A stretch of 64,000 nt of DNA from an uncultured Sandarakinorhabdus sp. (GCA_964488775.1 CAZAWH010000001.1:1269-65268), one strand, 5' to 3'. Shown: positions 5,964 through 15,202, numbered from the stretch's first letter. A program made the numbers and translations. Notes: generated from the sequence alone by a model not told the origin.

Positions 5964-6335
5964 TTATTCCCTCGACAATTTCTCCACGAGATCCATGATC
6001 GGCGGATCGGGATTGGCCATGGCCTCAACCTCTTGCGCAAAGCCGCGCATGACCCGGGCGATGAAGGCGCGCGTGGCCTCGCCCCGTTCCTCGCCGGCCG
6101 CGCGGTCGGGCATATAGGCCTCGATCTCGGCGCGGTTGAGGCCGCCCTTGGCCTCCAGCAGCCGCTCCACCGTGTCCAGCCGCTCGCGCAGCACGCTCAC
6201 TTCCGCGACCAGGGCCATGGACAGGGACAGGAGCCGGTCCACCGCCGGATCATCGAAATAGGCCGGGCGGCGGCCCTTGGGGCGGGCGCCAGCGCGGGCG
6301 ATCCAGTCGATGGATTCAGAGCTGTTGGCCGTCAT
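5964..6335 (-). CDS. Hypothetical 123-aa protein (coiled-coil-like EVSVLRERLDTVERLLE)
   Basis: ATG 6335 overlaps (ATGA) the natural stop of the upstream methyltransferase. The ORF track fuses the two only because of a frameshift. Confidence 0.75.
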   Translation of the reverse strand: MTANSSESIDWIARAGARPKGRRPAYFDDPAVDRLLSLSMALVAEVSVLRERLDTVERLLEAKGGLNRAEIEAYMPDRAAGEERGEATRAFIARVMRGFAQEVEAMANPDPPIMDLVEKLSRE

Positions 6336-7544
6336 GCCGCCAGTTCCTGGGCCTGCGGCTTCCACGCGCCATAGGCGTTCCACACCGCGGCGCGGCCATA
6401 ATCCTCCTGCTCCTCGGTTTCGGCTGCCGGGAAGATGCTGCGATCCACCACGGCGCGCACGCCGACCACGAACTGGCTGTCGGAGCGGGAAACCGGCGCG
6501 GGCCATCACCTGCTTCAGGTCCTGGCCGTGCATGGCGCTCCAGAACGGCTCGTTGTTGTTGAACGCATCCCAGTCGCGCATGAACTGTTCGAACAGGGGC
6601 ATGGCATCGCTGTATTGCGGCTGCTCGACATGCAGGATCAGGCCGCCGGGCTTCAGCACGCGGTGGCATTCGGCCAGCAGTTTCGGCATCGACCGGGCCG
6701 ACAGCTCGTGCAGGAACATGGTGGTCTGCACCCAATCGAAATGATTGTCCGGGAAGCGGGACAGATCCTCGCCATTGGCCTGCACGAACTTGATGTTCTT
6801 CGCGCCCAACCCGGCGGCGCGCGCCGCGCCATAGCGCAGGGAGGCGGCCGCGGTGTCGATGGCAATCACCTCCGCCTCTGGATAGGCCAGCGCGATCGGC
6901 ACGGCATTGTGGCCAACCGTGGCCCCCACATCGAGGATGCGTTGCGGCTGCCAGCCCGGGCGCTCTTTCTTGGCCCAGGCCACCACCGCCTGGCCGCCGC
7001 CATCGTTCAGCCCGCCCAGCGCGCCGCCGGTGGTGGCAAAGATGCCGACATCATAATTGGCCCCGGCCGACACATCGCCAGGCCGTTCCTCGCTGTGATA
7101 GCCGCCGGGCTGGCAATGGATGTCCACCACCGTCTGATATTCGGGCTGCTCGATGCTCGGGTCCAGCTCCAGCATGCCCGAATGCTCGTTGAATTGGCGG
7201 GCAAGCGCGTCAAGCTCGTCCAGCTGGCGCAGCACGGTGGCGCGGCCATTGTGCTGGCGCATTTCCATCGAATTGCGCTTCAGAGCGCTCCACATGCGGT
7301 GGAACGGATCCTGGTTCATGGCATCGCGGATTTCATAGCGGTGTTCGGGATCGCGGCCATGTTCGGCGCGGAAGGCCGGCAGCACCCGCGTGTCATAGGC
7401 GAGCCGGTTGCCCGGGCCCAACGTGCCCGAGATATAGCGGTTGAGATGGGTGAGGAAGTTGAACCGCGCCGCCTCATCATGATTGGTGCGCGCCAGCATC
7501 GGGTGGCGGGTGAGCGCGGTGTAGGGCGGGGGCAGGTCACTCAT
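6332..7544 (-). pseudogene. Class I SAM-dependent methyltransferase with a +1 frameshift near 6482-6486
   Basis: RILDVGATVG, FDWVQTTMFLHE and RVLKPGG motifs; GGAG RBS before ATG 7544. Removing one C from TTC CCG CTC CGAC restores a tail DSQFVVGVRAVVDRSIF...WNAYGAWKPQAQELAA*. Could be a sequencing error. Confidence 0.75.
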
Positions 7545-7563
7545 CGCAAAGATGCTCCACAAG

Positions 7564-7575
7564 TTGTCCGGACAA
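7564..7575. promoter_or_regulatory. Perfect 12-bp palindrome, putative operator of the methyltransferase operon
   Basis: TTGTCCGGACAA about 20 bp upstream of the start codon. Confidence 0.5.
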
Positions 7576-7695
7576 ATGGCCATGCAGCTGCGGCCAAGTC
7601 AAGCTGCGGGAAAACCCGGATGTGCAGCCATGCTGCCGCAGCGGGGCAATGCGTCAAGAGCGTGCAGCGACGCGGGGCCGCCGGCACGCCTTGTA

Positions 7696-10600
7696 TCAGC
7701 GCGGTTGTGACAGCCAGCGCAGGGCGGCGCGGCCGGGCAGGAAGAAATAACCGCCGCCCTTCATCGCCACCCATTGCTGCAGACCTGTCAGGCGAACGGG
7801 GCCGATCGCGGTGGGCAGGGTGAAATTGCCCTGGCCCAGCAGCGGGTCAATCTCGCCGGCCAGGCCATGGAAGCTGGGGCCCATCAGCCAGCGTTGCTGG
7901 ATGAATTCGAACTGGCGTTCGATGTCGGCGCAGATGGCGGTGAACATCAGGCCGCGTTCCTCCCCCTCACGGTAGGGTCGGCCGCGGCGGATCAGGCGGT
8001 GGCGGTTGATGGTGGCCAGGCTTTCGGGATCACGGATGTCCAGCCCGTCGCGCGGGTTGGCGCGGCGGATATGGCTGCCCAGCGGGCAGGCCAGGCCTTG
8101 CGGATCCTCGTGGGCAAAGCCGAAATCATTGTGCGCTTCCCCACTGCCGCCGGGGCCGGCGCGATCGATCAGCGGCGTGCCGTCGGGCCAGCGGCCGATG
8201 ATCTTGGCCGCCACCCATTGGCCATCAATGGTTTGCCCGATGCTGCTGGCCAGATGCGGGCAGCGGCCGTTGAGATCGGCGGCAGCGGCGGCGGTGCCGG
8301 CGGCAAATCCCTCCACATTCTGGGCGAGCCGGCGCACCACCAGGAAGCTGCCGTTGCGGCCAAAATCACGGAAGGCCGGCGGATGGTCCGGCGTGAAATC
8401 GGGATAGGGGCGGCTGGGTTCCGCCGCGGCGGGCAGCAGGCCAAGCGGGTCATGCCCGGCCTCCAGCCGCAGCGGCGGCGCGACATAGCCCTGATTGCTG
8501 GGATGGCCGAGCAGCACTTCGCCGGCTGCCATCTGATCAGTGGCAGGCCGGCGGCGCCAATCGGCGGTGTGGCGGATGACCGGCTGGGAAATGCCGTCGC
8601 GAAAGCCGAAATGATCCACGTCCAGGCTGTCCGGATCAGGGCCATTGCCGCTGGGGCTGGTGATCACCTGGTGGGTGATGGGCGCGATGGCCGCAACGGC
8701 AGCGATGGCGGCGGCGAGGCGCTGGGGCGTGTCGCAGGCCAGAATCAGGCAGGCATCGGCGGCATCATAAGCGGCAAGGCCGGCCGCGTCCCAATCGCCC
8801 GGATCGCCCAGGATGGTGGCACGCGCCTGCATGCCCGCCATGAACGCCAGCGGGAAACTGGCGAGGCCATGGGCGCTGTCTGGCCCCGGCAGGCCAAGCC
8901 TGGCCAGCCCCGCCGGTGACAGGGCGAGGCTGGCGCTGGCGGCAAGGCGCGGCGCGCCCGAGGGCAGATCGCCAAAGCTGACCGGGGGCAGATCCCCTTC
9001 CCCCGCCACCAGTCGGGCCAGCGCCCGATTGGGATCGCCGGCGGGCAGATCGAGGAACAGATGGGCGCCGTGGACCAGGCTGCCCATGGCGCGGAAGACG
9101 ATGCTTTGCACCTGGGCGGTGTCCACCACCTCGGCCGGGCGCGGGGCGCTGCCCAACAGGCTGAGCAGATCCTGGGCGGCTGCTTCGTCCGCCGCGCGGG
9201 CCAGGCCGTGATGGATCAGGGCCTGGGCGCGGATGCGATCCAGCGTCAGATCGGGCAGCGAACTGTACCAGACATGGGTGAGCCGCTGTTGCCGCCGCAC
9301 CCAGCGCTTGAACAGATCGCCGTTCTTCGCGCCTTCCAGCACGAGATTGCGGGCCGGCGGGAAGCCGACTCCATGGCTCCATGCCGCGGTCTGGCCTTCG
9401 TGCGCCTTGGTGATGAAATCCTCGAGATAGGATTCCCAGGTGCCATCATAATTGCTGAAGAAGATCAGTTTTTCAGCATCGGGCAGGCGCAGCCAGCGGG
9501 CAAAGTGGATGGTGCCCATGGTGAGGATGAAGCCGGACCTGGTATAGTGGGTGGCGAAGACCTTGATGCCCCACATGGCAAAGGCGAAGGTGAGCCGACG
9601 CAGCAGGCCAGGCTTGAAATCGGAACAGGAAATGATGTGGCTCTGTTCGTGGCCAGCCGCATTTTCAGCCGCCGCGATGGCGAGGCGCCGGGCCAGATCG
9701 GGATCGCGGGTGTCAGGCGGGTCACTGGCTTCCAGTTGGCCCAGTGCCCGCACGGTGAGGAACAGCAGCAGCCCCCAGAACAGCACGGCAGCGAGCAGGC
9801 CGACGGCAGTGCAGATCACCGCCTTGGCCAGCCACAGGCCGGGGCCGAGCAGGCCCCAGCAGGCAAGACCGACGAGCAGCGCCGGCACGGCCGCGATGGC
9901 CGGAATCCAGCGGCCAGCCGGTGAAACCAGATACGCGATCACCCCGCCCCAGAAGCCCGGCCAGGTGAAATTGACAAAGGGCAGCCGCTGCCGGCCGGGC
10001 ACGAACAGCATCGGGCGCAGCCGGGCGGCGTCGCTGGCCAGATCCGTCGGCGCGCTGGCTGGATCGGCCAGCATGGCGCGGATGGCAGCCACTGTCGCCA
10101 GCGCCGGCTGGGCCTGGCCGCGGCTTTGCTGCTGCACATGATCGGCGGCACGGCGGACGAAATCGGCCAGATCGCGGCGGCGGCGCTTCATGGCGAGCGT
10201 GAAGCCGGTGGAGCCGTTGTAGAGCAGGCCGGTGGTGCCCCAGGGGCGCGGCCGCACATCCAGCCGGTGGCGGGTGAGGAATAGGAACAGGCTGGCCCGG
10301 CCGTCCCAGGCGCTGACCCGCTGGATCAGGGCAACCAGTTCGGCCGGCGGGCTGGCAAAGATCGCAGCCAGGGCCTGTTCCTCTTCGCCATCGGCGGAAA
10401 TCTCGATCAGCAGGCGCACATCGGGAATGGCCGGCGTGCCGACATCCAGCGCGTTGATCGACAGATAATGCACGATGCCCAGCCCATCGAGCCACTGGCG
10501 CACCGCCGGGCCAGCCGGGTTGCCAAAGCCGATCAGCGCGGTTTCCAGCGCCGCCAGCTCTGCCGGATCGGTGATCCCGCGCAGCACCGGCACATTCAGC

Positions 10601-11985
10601 GTGATCATCGCATGCGCCGCCGGGCCGGCCGGAATCGCCGGGCCATAGCGCACGTCCAGACGGCGCGGGAACGGGCCGGCCAGTTCGGTCTTGCCGGCGC
10701 GGGCGAGACCAGGCTGGGCAAAGAGCAGCATCAGGATGCCGGTCATCTGCTCCGTGCTCATATATTGGCCGATGCAATTGTGCAGGCCATGGCCGAACAT
10801 CAGGTTGGGGGCATGTTCGCGCCCCCGCCAGCGATCGGGATCGAAGCGGCCGGGCCGGGGCCATTCCCGGCGATCGTGCATGGCAGCCGCCGTGGCGGCC
10901 AGCACCACGCCGCCATTCGGGCCCGTGCGGAACTGGCCTGGATCAAGCGCCGGGGCCATGCGGCACGCCTCCAGCGCGATGCGGCGCATGGCGTCCCGGT
11001 CACCGGCCTGGGCGGCCTCCACCGCCTGCTGGAACGGGCCAGGGTGGCGCAACAGCCAGTCAAAGGCCTTGCCGCCGGCCAGGGTGGTGGTGGGGCCAAG
11101 GCCAATGGCGAGGCCCGTGATGATCGACCGGATCAGGGCATGATCAGCCGGCGCCAGCCCCGGCCCGCCCGCCATGAGGGTGGCGGCCAGCGCCCACATC
11201 AGGCCCTTTTGCCCGGCCAGTGCGTCGCGGCCGGCCGCATCCAGCGGGGCCAGCGCCGCCACGGCGCCAGCCAACTGCGCGTCGATCAGGGCGCGCAGCC
11301 GCCAGCCGGCGTGCTGGGCCAGTTCGCGGGTGGTGGCCGTGCCGGTGGGGTCGCCGAACAACATGGCCGACATGGCCAGCGTCCAATCCGAATATTCGTC
11401 CACGTCGGGCGGGCTGAGGCCGAGAAAGTCCGCGCCGGTTTGCGCCGTCACCCGGGCAAACACATCCTTCATCACATCGATCTGGCCATCGGCATTGGCC
11501 AGCAGCGCCGCAGTGATGCCGTCGGTATCGGCCATGAAGCGGGCCTTCCAGGCCTGGCCGCCGGCCATGGCCGCTTCCACCAGCGCGCGCTGGCTGGCAT
11601 GGGCCGGCCCTTCGGTGCCCAGCATGAACGGCGGGCGCAGCGCCGGATCGGCCCCGGCCGGCGCCGGGCCATGCGCCAACAGGATCATTTCCGCCCCGAA
11701 TGGCACCGGATAGGTTTCGGAATCGTTCAGCACCGCCATCACGCTGCTGTGCCGGGCCATGATGGTGAGATTGAAAAACGGCAGGCGCAACGTGCCGAAC
11801 AGCCGGGCCAGCCAGATCACCGCCGCCATCAGGGCCAGCACGCCCCAGCGGAAGGCCCGCGCCAACACGCCATTGGCCGGTGCCAATCGTTCCAGCCGAA
11901 ACACGACCTGGGCCAGATCCTGGCCGGCCAGATGCCATTCGGCCGGGGCATCCGGCACCGGATATTTCAGTTTGAACCCGGCCAT
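7696..11985 (-). CDS. Cytochrome P450 - membrane-anchored linker domain - DyP-type peroxidase fusion (1429 aa)
   Basis: P450 motifs: ExxR (EACR), PGRFDPDRW and heme motif FGHGLHNCIG. DyP motifs: HFGFRDGISQP (GxxDG), GSHIRRANPRD, RLIRRGRPY and QFEFIQ. Two hydrophobic helices lie in the middle region. Confidence 0.9.
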   Translation of the reverse strand: MAGFKLKYPVPDAPAEWHLAGQDLAQVVFRLERLAPANGVLARAFRWGVLALMAAVIWLARLFGTLRLPFFNLTIMARHSSVMAVLNDSETYPVPFGAEMILLAHGPAPAGADPALRPPFMLGTEGPAHASQRALVEAAMAGGQAWKARFMADTDGITAALLANADGQIDVMKDVFARVTAQTGADFLGLSPPDVDEYSDWTLAMSAMLFGDPTGTATTRELAQHAGWRLRALIDAQLAGAVAALAPLDAAGRDALAGQKGLMWALAATLMAGGPGLAPADHALIRSIITGLAIGLGPTTTLAGGKAFDWLLRHPGPFQQAVEAAQAGDRDAMRRIALEACRMAPALDPGQFRTGPNGGVVLAATAAAMHDRREWPRPGRFDPDRWRGREHAPNLMFGHGLHNCIGQYMSTEQMTGILMLLFAQPGLARAGKTELAGPFPRRLDVRYGPAIPAGPAAHAMITLNVPVLRGITDPAELAALETALIGFGNPAGPAVRQWLDGLGIVHYLSINALDVGTPAIPDVRLLIEISADGEEEQALAAIFASPPAELVALIQRVSAWDGRASLFLFLTRHRLDVRPRPWGTTGLLYNGSTGFTLAMKRRRRDLADFVRRAADHVQQQSRGQAQPALATVAAIRAMLADPASAPTDLASDAARLRPMLFVPGRQRLPFVNFTWPGFWGGVIAYLVSPAGRWIPAIAAVPALLVGLACWGLLGPGLWLAKAVICTAVGLLAAVLFWGLLLFLTVRALGQLEASDPPDTRDPDLARRLAIAAAENAAGHEQSHIISCSDFKPGLLRRLTFAFAMWGIKVFATHYTRSGFILTMGTIHFARWLRLPDAEKLIFFSNYDGTWESYLEDFITKAHEGQTAAWSHGVGFPPARNLVLEGAKNGDLFKRWVRRQQRLTHVWYSSLPDLTLDRIRAQALIHHGLARAADEAAAQDLLSLLGSAPRPAEVVDTAQVQSIVFRAMGSLVHGAHLFLDLPAGDPNRALARLVAGEGDLPPVSFGDLPSGAPRLAASASLALSPAGLARLGLPGPDSAHGLASFPLAFMAGMQARATILGDPGDWDAAGLAAYDAADACLILACDTPQRLAAAIAAVAAIAPITHQVITSPSGNGPDPDSLDVDHFGFRDGISQPVIRHTADWRRRPATDQMAAGEVLLGHPSNQGYVAPPLRLEAGHDPLGLLPAAAEPSRPYPDFTPDHPPAFRDFGRNGSFLVVRRLAQNVEGFAAGTAAAAADLNGRCPHLASSIGQTIDGQWVAAKIIGRWPDGTPLIDRAGPGGSGEAHNDFGFAHEDPQGLACPLGSHIRRANPRDGLDIRDPESLATINRHRLIRRGRPYREGEERGLMFTAICADIERQFEFIQQRWLMGPSFHGLAGEIDPLLGQGNFTLPTAIGPVRLTGLQQWVAMKGGGYFFLPGRAALRWLSQPR

Positions 11986-12007
11986 GCCCCCACCCCCGTG
12001 CTGCCAC

Positions 12008-13675
12008 TCACCCCGGTTGCAGGGCGAGCAATGGTTCCTTCAGGAAGCCGTTCCACTGTGCATTGCGGAACGGAATCCAATCGATGTAATCGGTGCGGAA
12101 GCCGGGCCGGGCGGCCACCAGTTCGGCCAGGGCCTCGGCCGCCGCCTGATCATTGCCGGCCCGCCATAGCGCGTTGATGCGGGTGACATGGGCATGCCAA
12201 TAGCCCGGCTGCAGCGCGATGGCGGTTTGGGCGCGGGTTTGCGCCGCGGCCCATTCGCCCTGCAACAACAGCGCCAGCGCCAGTTCCGCCTCCCGGTAAA
12301 AGCGGCGGAAATCGTGTGGCGACAGGCGCAGCGCGGTTTCCAGCCATTCCGACGCCGCCAGCGGGCGGCTGTTGAGGATGTGCAATGTGCCCAATTGCTC
12401 ATGCGCCATGGCCAGGCTGGGGCTCAGGGCCACCGCTTCGCGCAGCCAGGTTTCCGCCGGGCCCATGTGGCGCTGCCACATCTCCGAAATGCCCACCAGC
12501 AGATGGGCGCGGCCATCCCGGCGGTCCAGATCGACCGCACGGCGCGCGGCCTCACCAAAGGCAGCGACCTCGTCCGGCCCGGCGCGGCGGCTCCACAGGC
12601 GATAGCCCAGATTCTGCGCCCATTCGATGGCGGCATTGGCCGATTGCGGCGCCAGGCGCAGGGCCTCGGCAAAAAAGCCGGAGGCGGCCTCCAGATCGGG
12701 TTGGGACAGGCGGTTCTGATGCCAGCGGCCACGCCAGATCAGATCATTCACATCCAGCCGATCCGCCGGCAGACTGGCCACGCGCCCCTGCTCGGCATCG
12801 TCAAGCCGTTCGGACAGGATGGCGACCATCTGATCGATGATCGGCAGGATGGCATTGGATTCCTGCGGATTTTGCAGCTCAAGCGACGGCGAGCAGACAA
12901 TTTCGCCATCCGCGCAGCCCATCAAGCGGCCCGACAGCAGCCAGCCGCCCAAGCCGCGCCGCAGCCGCCCGCCAAAGACATAGGCCGCCCCCAGCCGGCG
13001 CCCGGCCTCCAGCACATCCTCGCCGCCGCCAACGGCAAAGCTGTTGCCCGACCCAATCACCTTGAGCCAGCGCAAGCGGGCGATGCGATCGGCCAGTTCG
13101 TCGCCGATGCCGGCGGCAAGATAATCGGCCGCCGGATCGCCGCTTTCGTTCACGAACGGCAGCACGGCCAGGAGGGCCGGCGGGCGCGGCGCGGCAAAGC
13201 CTTCCGGGCGATGCGGGGCATCCGTGCGCTGCTGGGCCAGCCAGACTCCGAAATCAGGCGCGCTAGGGATTTCCATCCCTTCCAGCAGGTTCTGCCCCGG
13301 TTCGGCCGGCAACAGATCATAGAGCAAGGGATCAAGCCAGACACGCCGGCCTTCGGCGCGCAGCAGGCCGGGGGCCACCACGTCCAACTGCTTGCGCAGG
13401 CGTGACAATTCCTTGCGCAGGCTGGCCTGGCCCTGCTCTTCGGCCCGGTCTCCCCACAACTGGCGGCGCAGCCAGTCGCGGTTGTGTTCCTGACGGGGCA
13501 GCAAGGCCAGCATGGCGATCAGCGCCTGGCCCTTGCGGCTGGCCAGATCGATGCGGCGGCCATCGGCGGCAAACAGGCGGAACGGCCCGTGCACACCAAT
13601 GCGAACCCGTGCTGCCTGCGCGCCCAAATCACTGCCCCCAGCCGGGGTGCCCTCCCCGTTCACATCACGCTCCAT
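12008..13675 (-). CDS. Putative transcriptional regulator: SARP/OmpR-like winged helix, TolB-like (adenylate-cyclase-associated) domain and TPRs
   Basis: N-terminal GPFRL...KGQALIAMLAL...RDWLRRQLWGD...QASLRKELSRLR, central LAVLPFVN...YLAAGIGDEL, C-terminal TPR-like ALRLSP repeats. Start uncertain (13690, 13675 or 13663). Confidence 0.8.
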   Translation of the reverse strand: MERDVNGEGTPAGGSDLGAQAARVRIGVHGPFRLFAADGRRIDLASRKGQALIAMLALLPRQEHNRDWLRRQLWGDRAEEQGQASLRKELSRLRKQLDVVAPGLLRAEGRRVWLDPLLYDLLPAEPGQNLLEGMEIPSAPDFGVWLAQQRTDAPHRPEGFAAPRPPALLAVLPFVNESGDPAADYLAAGIGDELADRIARLRWLKVIGSGNSFAVGGGEDVLEAGRRLGAAYVFGGRLRRGLGGWLLSGRLMGCADGEIVCSPSLELQNPQESNAILPIIDQMVAILSERLDDAEQGRVASLPADRLDVNDLIWRGRWHQNRLSQPDLEAASGFFAEALRLAPQSANAAIEWAQNLGYRLWSRRAGPDEVAAFGEAARRAVDLDRRDGRAHLLVGISEMWQRHMGPAETWLREAVALSPSLAMAHEQLGTLHILNSRPLAASEWLETALRLSPHDFRRFYREAELALALLLQGEWAAAQTRAQTAIALQPGYWHAHVTRINALWRAGNDQAAAEALAELVAARPGFRTDYIDWIPFRNAQWNGFLKEPLLALQPG

Positions 13676-13715
13676 GCCCTGTTCAAGCACTGCTTAACAT
13701 CTTATTTTTGTTGAA

Positions 13716-13744
13716 GTCACGTTTTATTCACGCCACCTTCACGC
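13716..13744. promoter_or_regulatory. Three phased direct repeats, candidate winged-helix regulator binding site
   Basis: TCACG at 13717, 13728 and 13739 (gTCACGt, tTCACGc, tTCACGc), an exact 11-bp period. Confidence 0.6.
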
Positions 13745-13855
13745 GCTAGTAACTGGCCCTTGCATCCGGCTTGGCGCATTCAGGTTTCAGCGGGACAGAA
13801 GCTGATTCTCTCCCCCAACTGGTTCGGGCGGGCGGTGCACATCCGCTCACCCAAT

Positions 13856-14118
13856 CAGGTTGCAGGCGAAATGTTGCCGATGTTCGACCCGCATCGTCAA
13901 CATCCAACCTGTGACAGGCCGGCACCGGCGTTGCGGTGGGCGGTTGGCGTTTCCGGGTGGCCTGGCTGTTTGACCCGCAGCCTGGCCACCGGCACGCCAG
14001 ACGCCCGATCCCTTCCGCAGCAGGTGCAGCAACGGCCACCCATCGGCATCCACGCGATGCCGGTCACCAAGGAGGTGCGCCCGCCTGTTTTGACCCTGCA
14101 GGCGGGCGCACCGACCTT
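13856..14118 (+). ncRNA. Array of three long stem-loops with conserved 9-nt loop TTYGACCCK (candidate ncRNA or structured DNA element)
   Basis: 13871-13903 ATGTTGCCGATG-ttcgacccg-CATCGTCAACAT; 13956-13990 GGTGGCCTGGCTG-tttgacccg-CAGCCTGGCCACC; 14074-14112 GGTGCGCCCGCCTG-t-tttgaccct-g-CAGGCGGGCGCACC. Strand is tentative. Confidence 0.6.
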
Positions 14119-14237
14119 TCGGGGCCTGACACATGCCAATGCGGCAACCAGGCGACCATCCAAACACAGCTCATGACACCGCACCGGCCCGCGCTGGCGG
14201 GACGAGACGTACACATTCGAAAGACAGTTGGAAAAGT

Positions 14238-14312
14238 TGGCTGGGGCGCCAGGATTCGAACCTGGGAATGGCGGTACCAAAAACCGCTGCCTTACCGCTT
14301 GGCGACGCCCCA
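14238..14312 (-). tRNA. tRNA-Gln (anticodon TTG)
   Basis: TGGGGCGTCGCCAAGCGGTAAGGCAGCGGTTTTTGGTACCGCCATTCCCAGGTTCGAATCCTGGCGCCCCAGCCA forms a cloverleaf with a TTCGAAT T-loop and encoded CCA. Confidence 0.97.
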
Positions 14313-14371
14313 GCAGCCGGAGCGGCGGGTTAGGCAATCACGCGCGGTTTGCCAAGCGGAAAATCATCGCA

Positions 14372-15202
14372 TCAGCCAGCGCGTGCCAGCAGGCGGCGGG
14401 CCTGTTCCACATGCAGCACCTCCACCATCTGGCCATCCAGCGTGGCAACACCGCGTCCCTCGGCCAGCGCGGCATCATAGGCCGCAATCATGGCATGGGC
14501 CTGGGCCACTTCGGCCAGGCTCGGCGAAAACACGGCGTTGCAGGGATCAACCTGGCTGGGGTGAATCAACGTCTTGCCGTCAAAGCCCAGCAGCTTGCCC
14601 TGCGCGGCTTCGGCGCGGAAGGCGGTTTCGTTGCGAAATTCGGTGCAGACGCCATCGAAACAGGCGATGCCCGCGGCGCGGGCGGCGAGCACGATGGCCG
14701 ACAGGCTGTAGAGCAGCGGCCGGCGTTCGGCATCGGCGCCGCAATTGAGCGCCTTGGCCAGATCGGCCATGCCGGCAACCAGCGCTGCCACGCCCGGCAC
14801 GGCGGCGATGGCAGCGGCGTTCAGCACCGCGGCCGGCGTTTCGATCATGGCCAGCACCGGCCGGCCGCCGGCATGGGCGACCAGCGCTTGCGCCTCGGCG
14901 GCGCTGTCCACCTTGGGCACCACCACCCCGGCAAAGCCGTCCACATGGGCAGCCGCCATGTCATCGCCGTGCCAGGGCGTGCCAAGGCCGTTGACCCGCA
15001 GAAACAGCTGCTTGCCCTCCCAGCCACCGTCCAGCGCGGCCGCCACGGCGGCGGCGCGGGCTTCGGCCTTGGCGGCGGGTTGCACCGCATCTTCCAGATC
15101 AAGGATCACCGCATCGGCGGCCAGCGTGCGCGCCTTGGCAATGGCCGAGGCGCGGTTGGCGGGCAGATAAAGGACGGAGCGCAGGGTGGTGAGATCGATC
15201 AT
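14372..15202 (-). CDS. HpcH/HpaI aldolase / CitE-like CoA-ester lyase
   Basis: LRSVLYLPAN, ILDLEDAV, MIETP and GFDGKTLIHPSQ motifs. Confidence 0.88.
   Translation of the reverse strand: MIDLTTLRSVLYLPANRASAIAKARTLAADAVILDLEDAVQPAAKAEARAAAVAAALDGGWEGKQLFLRVNGLGTPWHGDDMAAAHVDGFAGVVVPKVDSAAEAQALVAHAGGRPVLAMIETPAAVLNAAAIAAVPGVAALVAGMADLAKALNCGADAERRPLLYSLSAIVLAARAAGIACFDGVCTEFRNETAFRAEAAQGKLLGFDGKTLIHPSQVDPCNAVFSPSLAEVAQAHAMIAAYDAALAEGRGVATLDGQMVEVLHVEQARRLLARAG

Follow-up and report, generated by a model that had tools for sequence, protein, structure and literature searches.

A conserved alphaproteobacterial regulator and heme-enzyme fusion with a predicted phased operator, and a probable hairpin-array RNA as its divergent output in Sandarakinorhabdus

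Introduction

What does a regulator control when the DNA upstream of its gene carries phased repeats and a structured tract in place of a recognizable divergent gene? The question is raised by a 64,000-nucleotide stretch from an uncultured Sandarakinorhabdus sp. (GCA_964488775.1, CAZAWH010000001.1:1269-65268), called the window throughout, in which a regulator gene is followed by a gene for a P450–peroxidase fusion. The window belongs to contig C1 of a 3.13-Mb assembly that is 95% complete, referred to as the window's assembly in the counts below; its closest homologues bear names from Sandarakinorhabdus. A preliminary description, made from the sequence alone, had proposed that regulator, fusion, repeats and tract form a self-contained module for signal synthesis and sensing or for peroxide response, with an RNA instead of a protein as its divergent output. 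We find that the sensor, enzyme and predicted operator form a real and conserved system, apparently undescribed so far, and that the output in the window's clade is likely an RNA. The two genes are:

12008..13690, minus strand: regulator open reading frame (ORF), with a SARP/OmpR-type winged helix, a TolB-like alpha/beta domain and a TPR superhelix
7696..11985, minus strand: P450–barrel–DyP fusion ORF of 1429 aa, from the ORF call and its homologues

The Regulator and Its Conserved Pairing with the Fusion

An alignment of 43 regulator homologues was used to fetch 160 loci, so that the loci were chosen by the regulator alone. The fusion lies directly downstream in 118 of the 130 loci that have at least 1.5 kb of downstream sequence, and the earlier proposal that the two genes, separated by 22 bp on the minus strand of the window, are one unit holds. 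The hosts of these loci include Rhodopseudomonas, Bradyrhizobium, Reyranella, Phenylobacterium, Novosphingobium, Sphingorhabdus, and Vineibacter.

In Pfam the regulator matched TPR families, and a fold search likewise returned TPR proteins only. Residues 4-93 match the winged helix of AfsR (PDB 8HVR, E 8.5e-5); Trans_reg_C was detected in 15 of the 43 aligned members (E<=0.05), and the AlphaFold2 (AF2) model has the helix/strand pattern of a winged helix. A BTAD domain follows the winged helix in 1 of the 43. Because the N-terminus resembles AfsR but lacks BTAD, we regard the protein as SARP-like in its working and not as a full SARP member. Its true start may lie downstream of 13690. Two distant full-length paralogues in the genus (L008, L010) also have phased TCAC pairs upstream.

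The Fusion Enzyme

The fusion has three parts, the middle one of which (~530 aa) is absent from the preliminary description:

10636..11985, minus strand: P450 domain, aa 1-450, heme Cys404 and ExxR kept
9016..10623, minus strand: middle region, aa 455-990, two predicted alpha+beta barrel halves (ABM/WhiE-ORFI-like) in the AF2 model
about 9721-9918, minus strand: predicted hydrophobic helical hairpin between the barrel halves, within 9016..10623
7699..9033, minus strand: DyP-type peroxidase domain with GFRDG (1127-1131), proximal His1305 and distal Arg1333/1334

Full-length homologues of 1426-1774 aa were recovered in 81 loci. Pfam recognized the P450 (PF00067, E 1.3e-9) and the C-terminal DyP domain (DyP_C, PF20628, E 2.6e-4). 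The sequence matches of the P450 domain are ordinary actinobacterial P450s; Cys404 is invariant in 62 sequences, and E339 and R342 are conserved in at least 90%. In the window and the aligned homologues alike, the I-helix reads G(F/L)(I/V/G)PT(N/T)T, and the acid-alcohol pair (A/G-G-x-D/E-T) is missing. A P450 of this kind fits the use of peroxide or hydroperoxide better than reductase-driven activation of O2. The DyP domain scores 78.5 bits with TIGR01413, below the cut-off of 100.5, and its GxxDG motif, proximal His and distal Arg are all conserved among the homologues. The missing acid-alcohol pair and the intact DyP domain together point to the handling of peroxide or lipid hydroperoxide.

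Searches of Pfam and of PDB sequences with the 536 modelled residues of the middle region gave zero matches, and an Atlas search matched unnamed clusters only. The AF2 model has a pLDDT of 88.6 and a possible ferredoxin-like barrel fold, for which the best Foldseek E value is 7e-3. In structural comparison the region aligned to WhiE-ORFI (9LMN) with a VIA Z score of 12.4 but a root-mean-square deviation (rmsd) of 4.4 over 224 residues, and to Abx(+)O (9LTX) with Z 11.0 and rmsd 4.8. Two membrane-like segments were detected by a hydropathy rule in the middle region of 59 of 82 homologues. We infer that the enzyme is probably membrane-anchored and acts on peroxide or lipid hydroperoxide.

In four further loci (L271, L274, L275, L276) the P450, barrel and DyP pieces are reordered, and no regulator match is present in the fetched stretch. 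The main text of PMC8197338 contains zero occurrences of "fusion", "fused", "peroxidase" or "DyP"; its supplements may list these P450s under a CYP name.

The Predicted Phased Operator and the Divergent Units

Upstream of the regulator lie two elements that read in the opposite direction:

13717..13754, plus strand: predicted operator, TCACG three times (13717, 13728, 13739) in 11-bp phase, with a degenerate fourth unit TAACT (13750)
13777..13782, plus strand: weak, inferred -10-like element CATTCA, in the register of GATAAT/GATATC in sister loci and of low information content

The exact 11-bp TCACG triple is unique in the 3.13-Mb assembly. We surveyed 111 dereplicated upstream regions out of 146 with a fixed rule; the rule was formulated once the motif was known, and therefore the weight rests on the controls and not on the raw count. 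At least two units at 11-bp spacing were found in 88 of the 111 regions, and at least three in 64. The corresponding counts were 2-12 for other spacings, 1 for the opposite strand, at most 3 for shuffled sequences, and 0/109 inside coding sequences. The phased repeats of the preliminary description are thus a real, strand-specific motif, found family-wide upstream of the regulator. Across loci, the distance between the anchor repeat and a weak A/TA element is ~48-50 nt. The binding sites of SARP activators are direct repeats with 11-bp units, according to PMC10972967. Judged from sequence, the regulator probably recognizes these phased repeats and switches on transcription from the divergent promoter.

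The repeat motif also precedes divergent ORFs in sister lineages. We typed the divergent units by clustering the upstream ORFs and by Pfam. In 22 loci the unit is a PatG-like S8 protease, and in 27 it is an unnamed protein of ~270 aa that has no Pfam match. An unnamed protein of ~280 aa occupies the position in 19 loci, followed in 18 by an extracytoplasmic function (ECF) sigma factor. A short-chain dehydrogenase/reductase (SDR) is found in 11 loci, and a stand-alone DyP in L195 and L196. The Phenylobacterium-type loci have the repeats and no recurring divergent gene.

Several of these units are worth recording for themselves. The protease genes divergent from the regulator (L134:5730-7499, L170:1455-3611, and 20 related loci) come from Rhodopseudomonas and Bradyrhizobium; the ~270-aa protein (L071:6992-7891 and 26 related loci) is of the Reyranella type; and the unit of ~280-aa ORF and ECF sigma factor occurs at L086:6468-7911 and in related Novosphingobium and Sphingorhabdus loci.

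The Hairpin Array

In the window the position of the divergent gene is taken by a structured tract:

13785..14130, plus strand: predicted non-coding hairpin-array RNA, ends inferred, from folding and tract comparison
13860..13914, plus strand: hairpin H1, loop UCGACCC, GACCC at 13886
13946..14000, plus strand: hairpin H2, loop UUGACCC, GACCC at 13972
14074..14112, plus strand: hairpin H3, loop UUUGACCCU, GACCC at 14092; the loop is identical in the luxI 3'/GT2-leader element described below

Folding of 13750-14237 gave z scores of -6.4 for the plus strand and -4.0 for the minus strand, with 0 of 100 shuffles as stable. We compared 11 distinct tracts (the window, L037, L060, L061, L063-L067, L140, and L206), using 30 shuffles for each. 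The plus strand folds better than its shuffles in all 11 (z -3.5 to -8.8), and apart from the loops sequence identity between the tracts is low. Of the 10 pairs in H1, 9 have undergone compensatory change; the covariation score is matched by 0 of 500 shuffles, and slid controls score lower. H3 is 100% paired in 7 of the 11 tracts; a near-duplicate was set aside, as were three tracts whose loop is shifted by one base. GACCC sites fall into strong loops at 171 of 2635 positions in the window's assembly, and the tract is their only cluster.

The loop spacings (such as 86/120, 84/117, 84/110 and 78/72) are not consistent multiples of three, which excludes a shared reading frame. A coding role for the tract was considered and rejected: cross-locus protein similarity is found in every frame, mostly over H3, and no frame stands out. 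A scan of 13500-14450 for promoters and terminators returned 0 sites, so H3 is not a U-tract terminator. At the gathering level Rfam found only tRNA, in the window and in 9 motif loci, and in the tract itself only sub-threshold hairpin-type matches; among viral contigs there were 0 matches to the H3 pattern.

The preliminary description had an ORF-poor structured tract ending near the tRNA 3' end and hairpins with TTYGACCC loops. The structure is borne out, but it stops being strong near 14130, ~110-125 nt short of the tRNA 3' end, and the tract is overlapped by several ORFs of 97-146 aa, none of them conserved. For the loop, GACCC is the conserved core and the full TTYGACCC is not conserved.

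All 9 loci of the window's clade have GACCC-loop hairpins, and 7 of these loci have at least two, as opposed to 2 of 128 other loci with one each; the predicted RNA output is therefore clade-specific. In L066 and L140 the regulator, repeats and array are kept where no fusion is adjacent, so that the array follows the regulator. Taken together, the tract in this clade is likely, by its sequence and predicted folding, a ~340-nt non-coding RNA. The earlier idea of an RNA as divergent output is thus supported by fold, covariation and loops for this clade; in other lineages the output is usually protein-coding. Across regulator homologues, fusion and repeats do co-occur as anticipated, but the GACCC hairpins are essentially confined to the window's clade. 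Nor is a self-contained module supported, given the protein outputs elsewhere, the arrays that lack an adjacent fusion, and a loop motif that ties the array to two other loci in the genus.

The Same Loop Elsewhere in the Genus

Among 61 genomes of the genus, 6 gave scores above 60 bits with a model of H3, in each case next to the regulator and with one strong match per genome; weaker matches lie elsewhere. A 15-mer around the H3 loop was present in 34 of the 61 genomes, against 3 matches for the reversed control. We read 29 of these loci. Of these, 21 are elements at the luxI 3' end and in the GT2 leader and 5 are internal to a LuxR-type gene; one further locus is unclear, and the remaining two are unrelated. 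Pfam identified autoinducer synthase and GT2 in the loci tested, and GerE in the LuxR-type gene.

The luxI element, located between a luxI-like gene and a GT2 gene, consists of two hairpins, the first with a UUUUGACCCU loop and the second with a CCCUCC loop; it often overlaps the luxI stop codon. Compensatory changes were observed in 8 of 24 pairs. A model of the element scores in 44 of the 61 genomes and is essentially single-copy, the gene context being taken from the fetched loci. The element is a finding in its own right (L310:5894-6049, minus strand, on C121 of the window's assembly; L282-L309; L348-L357), flanked by a solo luxI-family gene and an NfrB-like GT2 gene and belonging to no Rfam family.

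The second context is a gene encoding a LuxR-type helix-turn-helix (HTH), a linker and a hydrophobic tail, present in 58 of the 61 genomes. We fetched the 30 best-scoring copies. All 30 have a GGCCCTC motif; in 21, a predicted loop contains GACCC, in most cases 78 nt further downstream. The hairpins sit in the linker mRNA, between the HTH and the hydrophobic C-terminus, and their stems differ in sequence among copies. At these loci (L388 on C160 of the window's assembly, and L358-L387), the HTH gene with its variable linker is followed by an Ala-rich ORF of ~125 aa and a hydrophobic ORF, both of which lack a Pfam match.

The window's assembly has all three contexts: the array, the luxI element (L310), and a degenerate LuxR copy on C160. 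In each context the GACCC motif is on the predicted sense strand. Beyond the genus, the two-loop pattern was found in 0 of 297 genomes, the luxI-element model matched 0 of 100 genomes, and 0 of 29 luxI homologues bear the element. LuxR-membrane homologues from 5 of 15 genomes outside the genus have no hairpin pair, and a class-level draw of 120 yielded none. Intergenic GACCC and CCCUCC-like words also lie close together at three places in the window's assembly (C17 ~24439, C69 ~7335, C75 ~12147), at a frequency not above control genome-wide.

Proposed Mechanism and Alternatives

The loop is present once in each of two mRNAs and three times in an RNA with a promoter of its own, on stems that vary freely, and this is the anatomy of a recognition site for a protein or nuclease together with a decoy. 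We give close to an even chance to the reading that the array is a decoy for a putative GACCC-loop-recognizing factor, whose loops also occur in the two other genus messages. The fusion enzyme would make or remove a molecule that the regulator senses through its TolB-like/TPR part; the regulator would then bind the phased repeats and activate the divergent promoter. Transcription from there would yield a ~340-nt non-coding RNA with three GACCC loops. When the regulator is active, this RNA would titrate the loop-binding protein or nuclease, and the luxI-GT2 and LuxR-membrane messages would be processed, terminated or translated differently. Autoinducer and surface-polysaccharide genes would in this way be tied to an oxidative or lipid signal. 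As a whole, a CsrA-independent post-transcriptional circuit in Sandarakinorhabdus, in which a putative protein or nuclease reads GACCC loops and a SARP-like sensor with a P450-barrel-DyP membrane enzyme switches it by a three-loop decoy RNA, with protein outputs elsewhere, is a tentative proposal.

Several observations weigh against it. The fusion is not adjacent in 12 of the 130 loci, and adjacency is the sole basis for linking enzyme to regulator. The -10 element in the window is weak and has no match in a sigma-70 scan. The reverse strand of L037 folds as well as the forward one (z -5.8 vs -5.2), the H2 loop is without GACCC in L064, L065, L066 and L067, and the 11 tracts are related and hence not independent events. 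The loop in the LuxR-type gene reads Asp-Pro in frame, so protein constraint could contribute to its conservation. A genome-wide scan for further two-loop modules gave 3 matches, against 2-11 for control motifs, which argues against a broad regulon; the scan missed the degenerate LuxR copy of the window's assembly and is therefore insensitive. In the 95% complete assembly CsrA (PF02599) and DUF1127 were not found, and no candidate loop-binding factor emerged.

Base pairing is the strongest competitor to titration, though we consider it unlikely. The array would then be a small RNA (sRNA) of the cuckoo/AbcR kind, its GACCC loops pairing with GGGUC in target mRNAs, and the luxI-3' and LuxR-internal elements would be sibling sRNAs processed from their own mRNAs. 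Modular hairpins, conserved pyrimidine-rich loops and free stems do resemble cuckoo RNAs; the CCCUCC loop of the partner hairpin is anti-Shine-Dalgarno-like, and the luxI element is located at a 3' end. A conserved target was not found, though: GGGTCGAA near the regulator start is limited to one subclade and a few scattered loci, and none of nine sites complementary to both loops is convincing. For an element within a coding region, moreover, a cis-acting site is more parsimonious than an sRNA.

It is more doubtful still that the loops are cleavage or splice sites of a specific endoribonuclease, with the array as competing substrate. IRE1/XBP1 offers a parallel for such logic. Cutting the LuxR-HTH-membrane mRNA between HTH and anchor would release or destroy a membrane-tethered factor, and the paired hairpins with conserved loops, mostly 78 nt apart, do sit in the linker that joins the HTH to the hydrophobic C-terminus, as the luxI element sits between two cistrons, often across the luxI stop codon. 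But a spacing of 78 nt is in frame, so that excision would not remove the anchor by frameshift, and no nuclease or ligase candidate was identified.

An equally improbable reading takes the tract as a cis-acting leader, or as the relic of a captured luxR-linker or luxI element left after loss of the divergent protein genes, in which case the operator would do no more than autoregulate the regulator-fusion operon. Protein genes occupy this position in other lineages, Phenylobacterium-type loci have the repeats with no recurring divergent ORF, and the loop spacing of 78 nt in L140 is that of the LuxR linker. Against this reading, three loops and compensatory stem changes were maintained while the remainder diverged; the next downstream gene varies among loci and is often convergent, which argues against a leader.

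tRNA-Gln and Neighboring Sequence

One further feature borders the tract:

14238..14312, minus strand: tRNA-Gln(TTG), a neighbor of the module and not a member of it, and an integration site in two relatives

As the preliminary description had stated, there is no integrase or duplicate attachment (att) site, since the tRNA 3' core has a single match in the window's assembly. The suggestion of a tRNA-borne island is weak. Of the 11 tracts, 5 stop near the 3' end of tRNA-Gln or near a short remnant of it, and 4 have no tRNA-Gln in the fetched flank; in L067 the tRNA is 1.9 kb off, and in L140 it is on the other side. Where an integrase element does occupy tRNA-Gln, the module lies outside it: in L034 (12120-13790) and L037 the integrase-bearing insertion is at the tRNA, beyond the array, and a short 3' remnant is left beside the array. 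The att site is therefore used, not demonstrably by the module, and comparison of the flanks in relatives makes the link between tRNA and module look incidental.

The GC content at third codon positions (GC3) of the two genes is 0.82 and 0.80, and that of their neighbors 0.81-0.86. The middle domain was matched in 15 of the 61 genus genomes, several of the matches being distant in type or different in layout; this patchy distribution may be compatible with an old acquisition of the module. That the hairpins are single-stranded DNA sites, REP-like or recombinational and tied to mobility at tRNA-Gln, is very improbable, for although the tract is near a used att site and patchily distributed in the genus, conservation is in the loops and not in the stem feet, there is one cluster and no dispersed repeat, the motif is always on the predicted sense strand in its three contexts, the module holds no transposase or integrase, and its GC3 is like that of the neighbors.

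Beyond the fusion gene, at 5964-7583 on the minus strand of the window, the reading frame of a methyltransferase continues into what looks like a distinct short protein; a frameshift or an assembly error may have joined two genes.

Comparison with Known Systems

The fusion, the regulator-operator family and the RNA motif had no description in the literature listings and opening lines of abstracts that were searched. What the comparison offers is a widespread alphaproteobacterial sensor-enzyme pair with a predicted operator, and a tri-domain heme enzyme with candidate peroxide chemistry in culturable Rhodopseudomonas, Bradyrhizobium and Novosphingobium. The promoter cassette has swapped outputs (proteases, sigma factors, peroxidases and, here, likely an RNA), and an RNA loop motif is found genus-wide at a solo luxI-glycosyltransferase locus and within a membrane-anchored LuxR-type gene. 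If the decoy reading is true, the array is bait for a new RNA-binding regulator in a lineage with no CsrA match.

The logic has precedents in SARP activation, in CsrB-type decoys and in peroxide-using P450 fusions. CYP74 is a peroxide-using P450, and linoleate diol synthase is a fungal dioxygenase-P450 fusion; with these our enzyme shares a P450 that has no acid-alcohol pair and a heme peroxidase-type domain. Unlike the fungal fusions, its partner is DyP and not a cyclooxygenase-like dioxygenase, and its domains come in the opposite order. With DyP-type peroxidases (closest solved 8RE2/8RE3; DyP2, 4G2C; Alr1585, 5C2I) it shares GxxDG, the proximal His and the distal Arg, whereas here the DyP domain is preceded in the fusion by a P450 and by a tandem barrel that includes a predicted membrane hairpin. 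The middle region may have the fold of the tandem ABM-fold proteins WhiE-ORFI (9LMN) and Abx(+)O (9LTX), to which it is 11-13% identical, but it is split by the hydrophobic hairpin, and a common fold would say nothing on function.

With SARP activators (AfsR, ActII-ORF4, DnrI, PimR) the regulator shares an N-terminal OmpR-type winged helix, and with large SARPs a C-terminal TPR region; two to five direct repeats of 11-bp units upstream of the target are also common to both, the SARP side being taken from PMC10972967. It differs in having neither BTAD nor NB-ARC and a TolB-like alpha/beta domain in their place, in being alphaproteobacterial and tied to one enzyme gene, and in an output that varies by lineage.

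Unlike REP and BIME elements, the hairpins do not occur in many dispersed copies and have no conserved stem foot; they form a single cluster. Cuckoo RNAs (ar14/CcsR) are closer: like the array, these RNAs of alphaproteobacteria are built of modular hairpins whose C-rich loop is conserved and whose stems vary, and the CCCUCC loop borne by the luxI and LuxR elements is a cuckoo-like trait. The loops of the array are nevertheless GACCC and not CCUCCUCCC, there is no Rfam match, and a DUF1127 gene was not found. For CsrA logic we used PMC4894983 and general background. Although its loops read GACCC and not GGA, number three, and come with no CsrA match in the assembly, the array resembles the CsrB/RsmZ decoys of CsrA/RsmA in being a multi-hairpin RNA with a repeated loop motif that also occurs in mRNAs, and in having a predicted dedicated activator.

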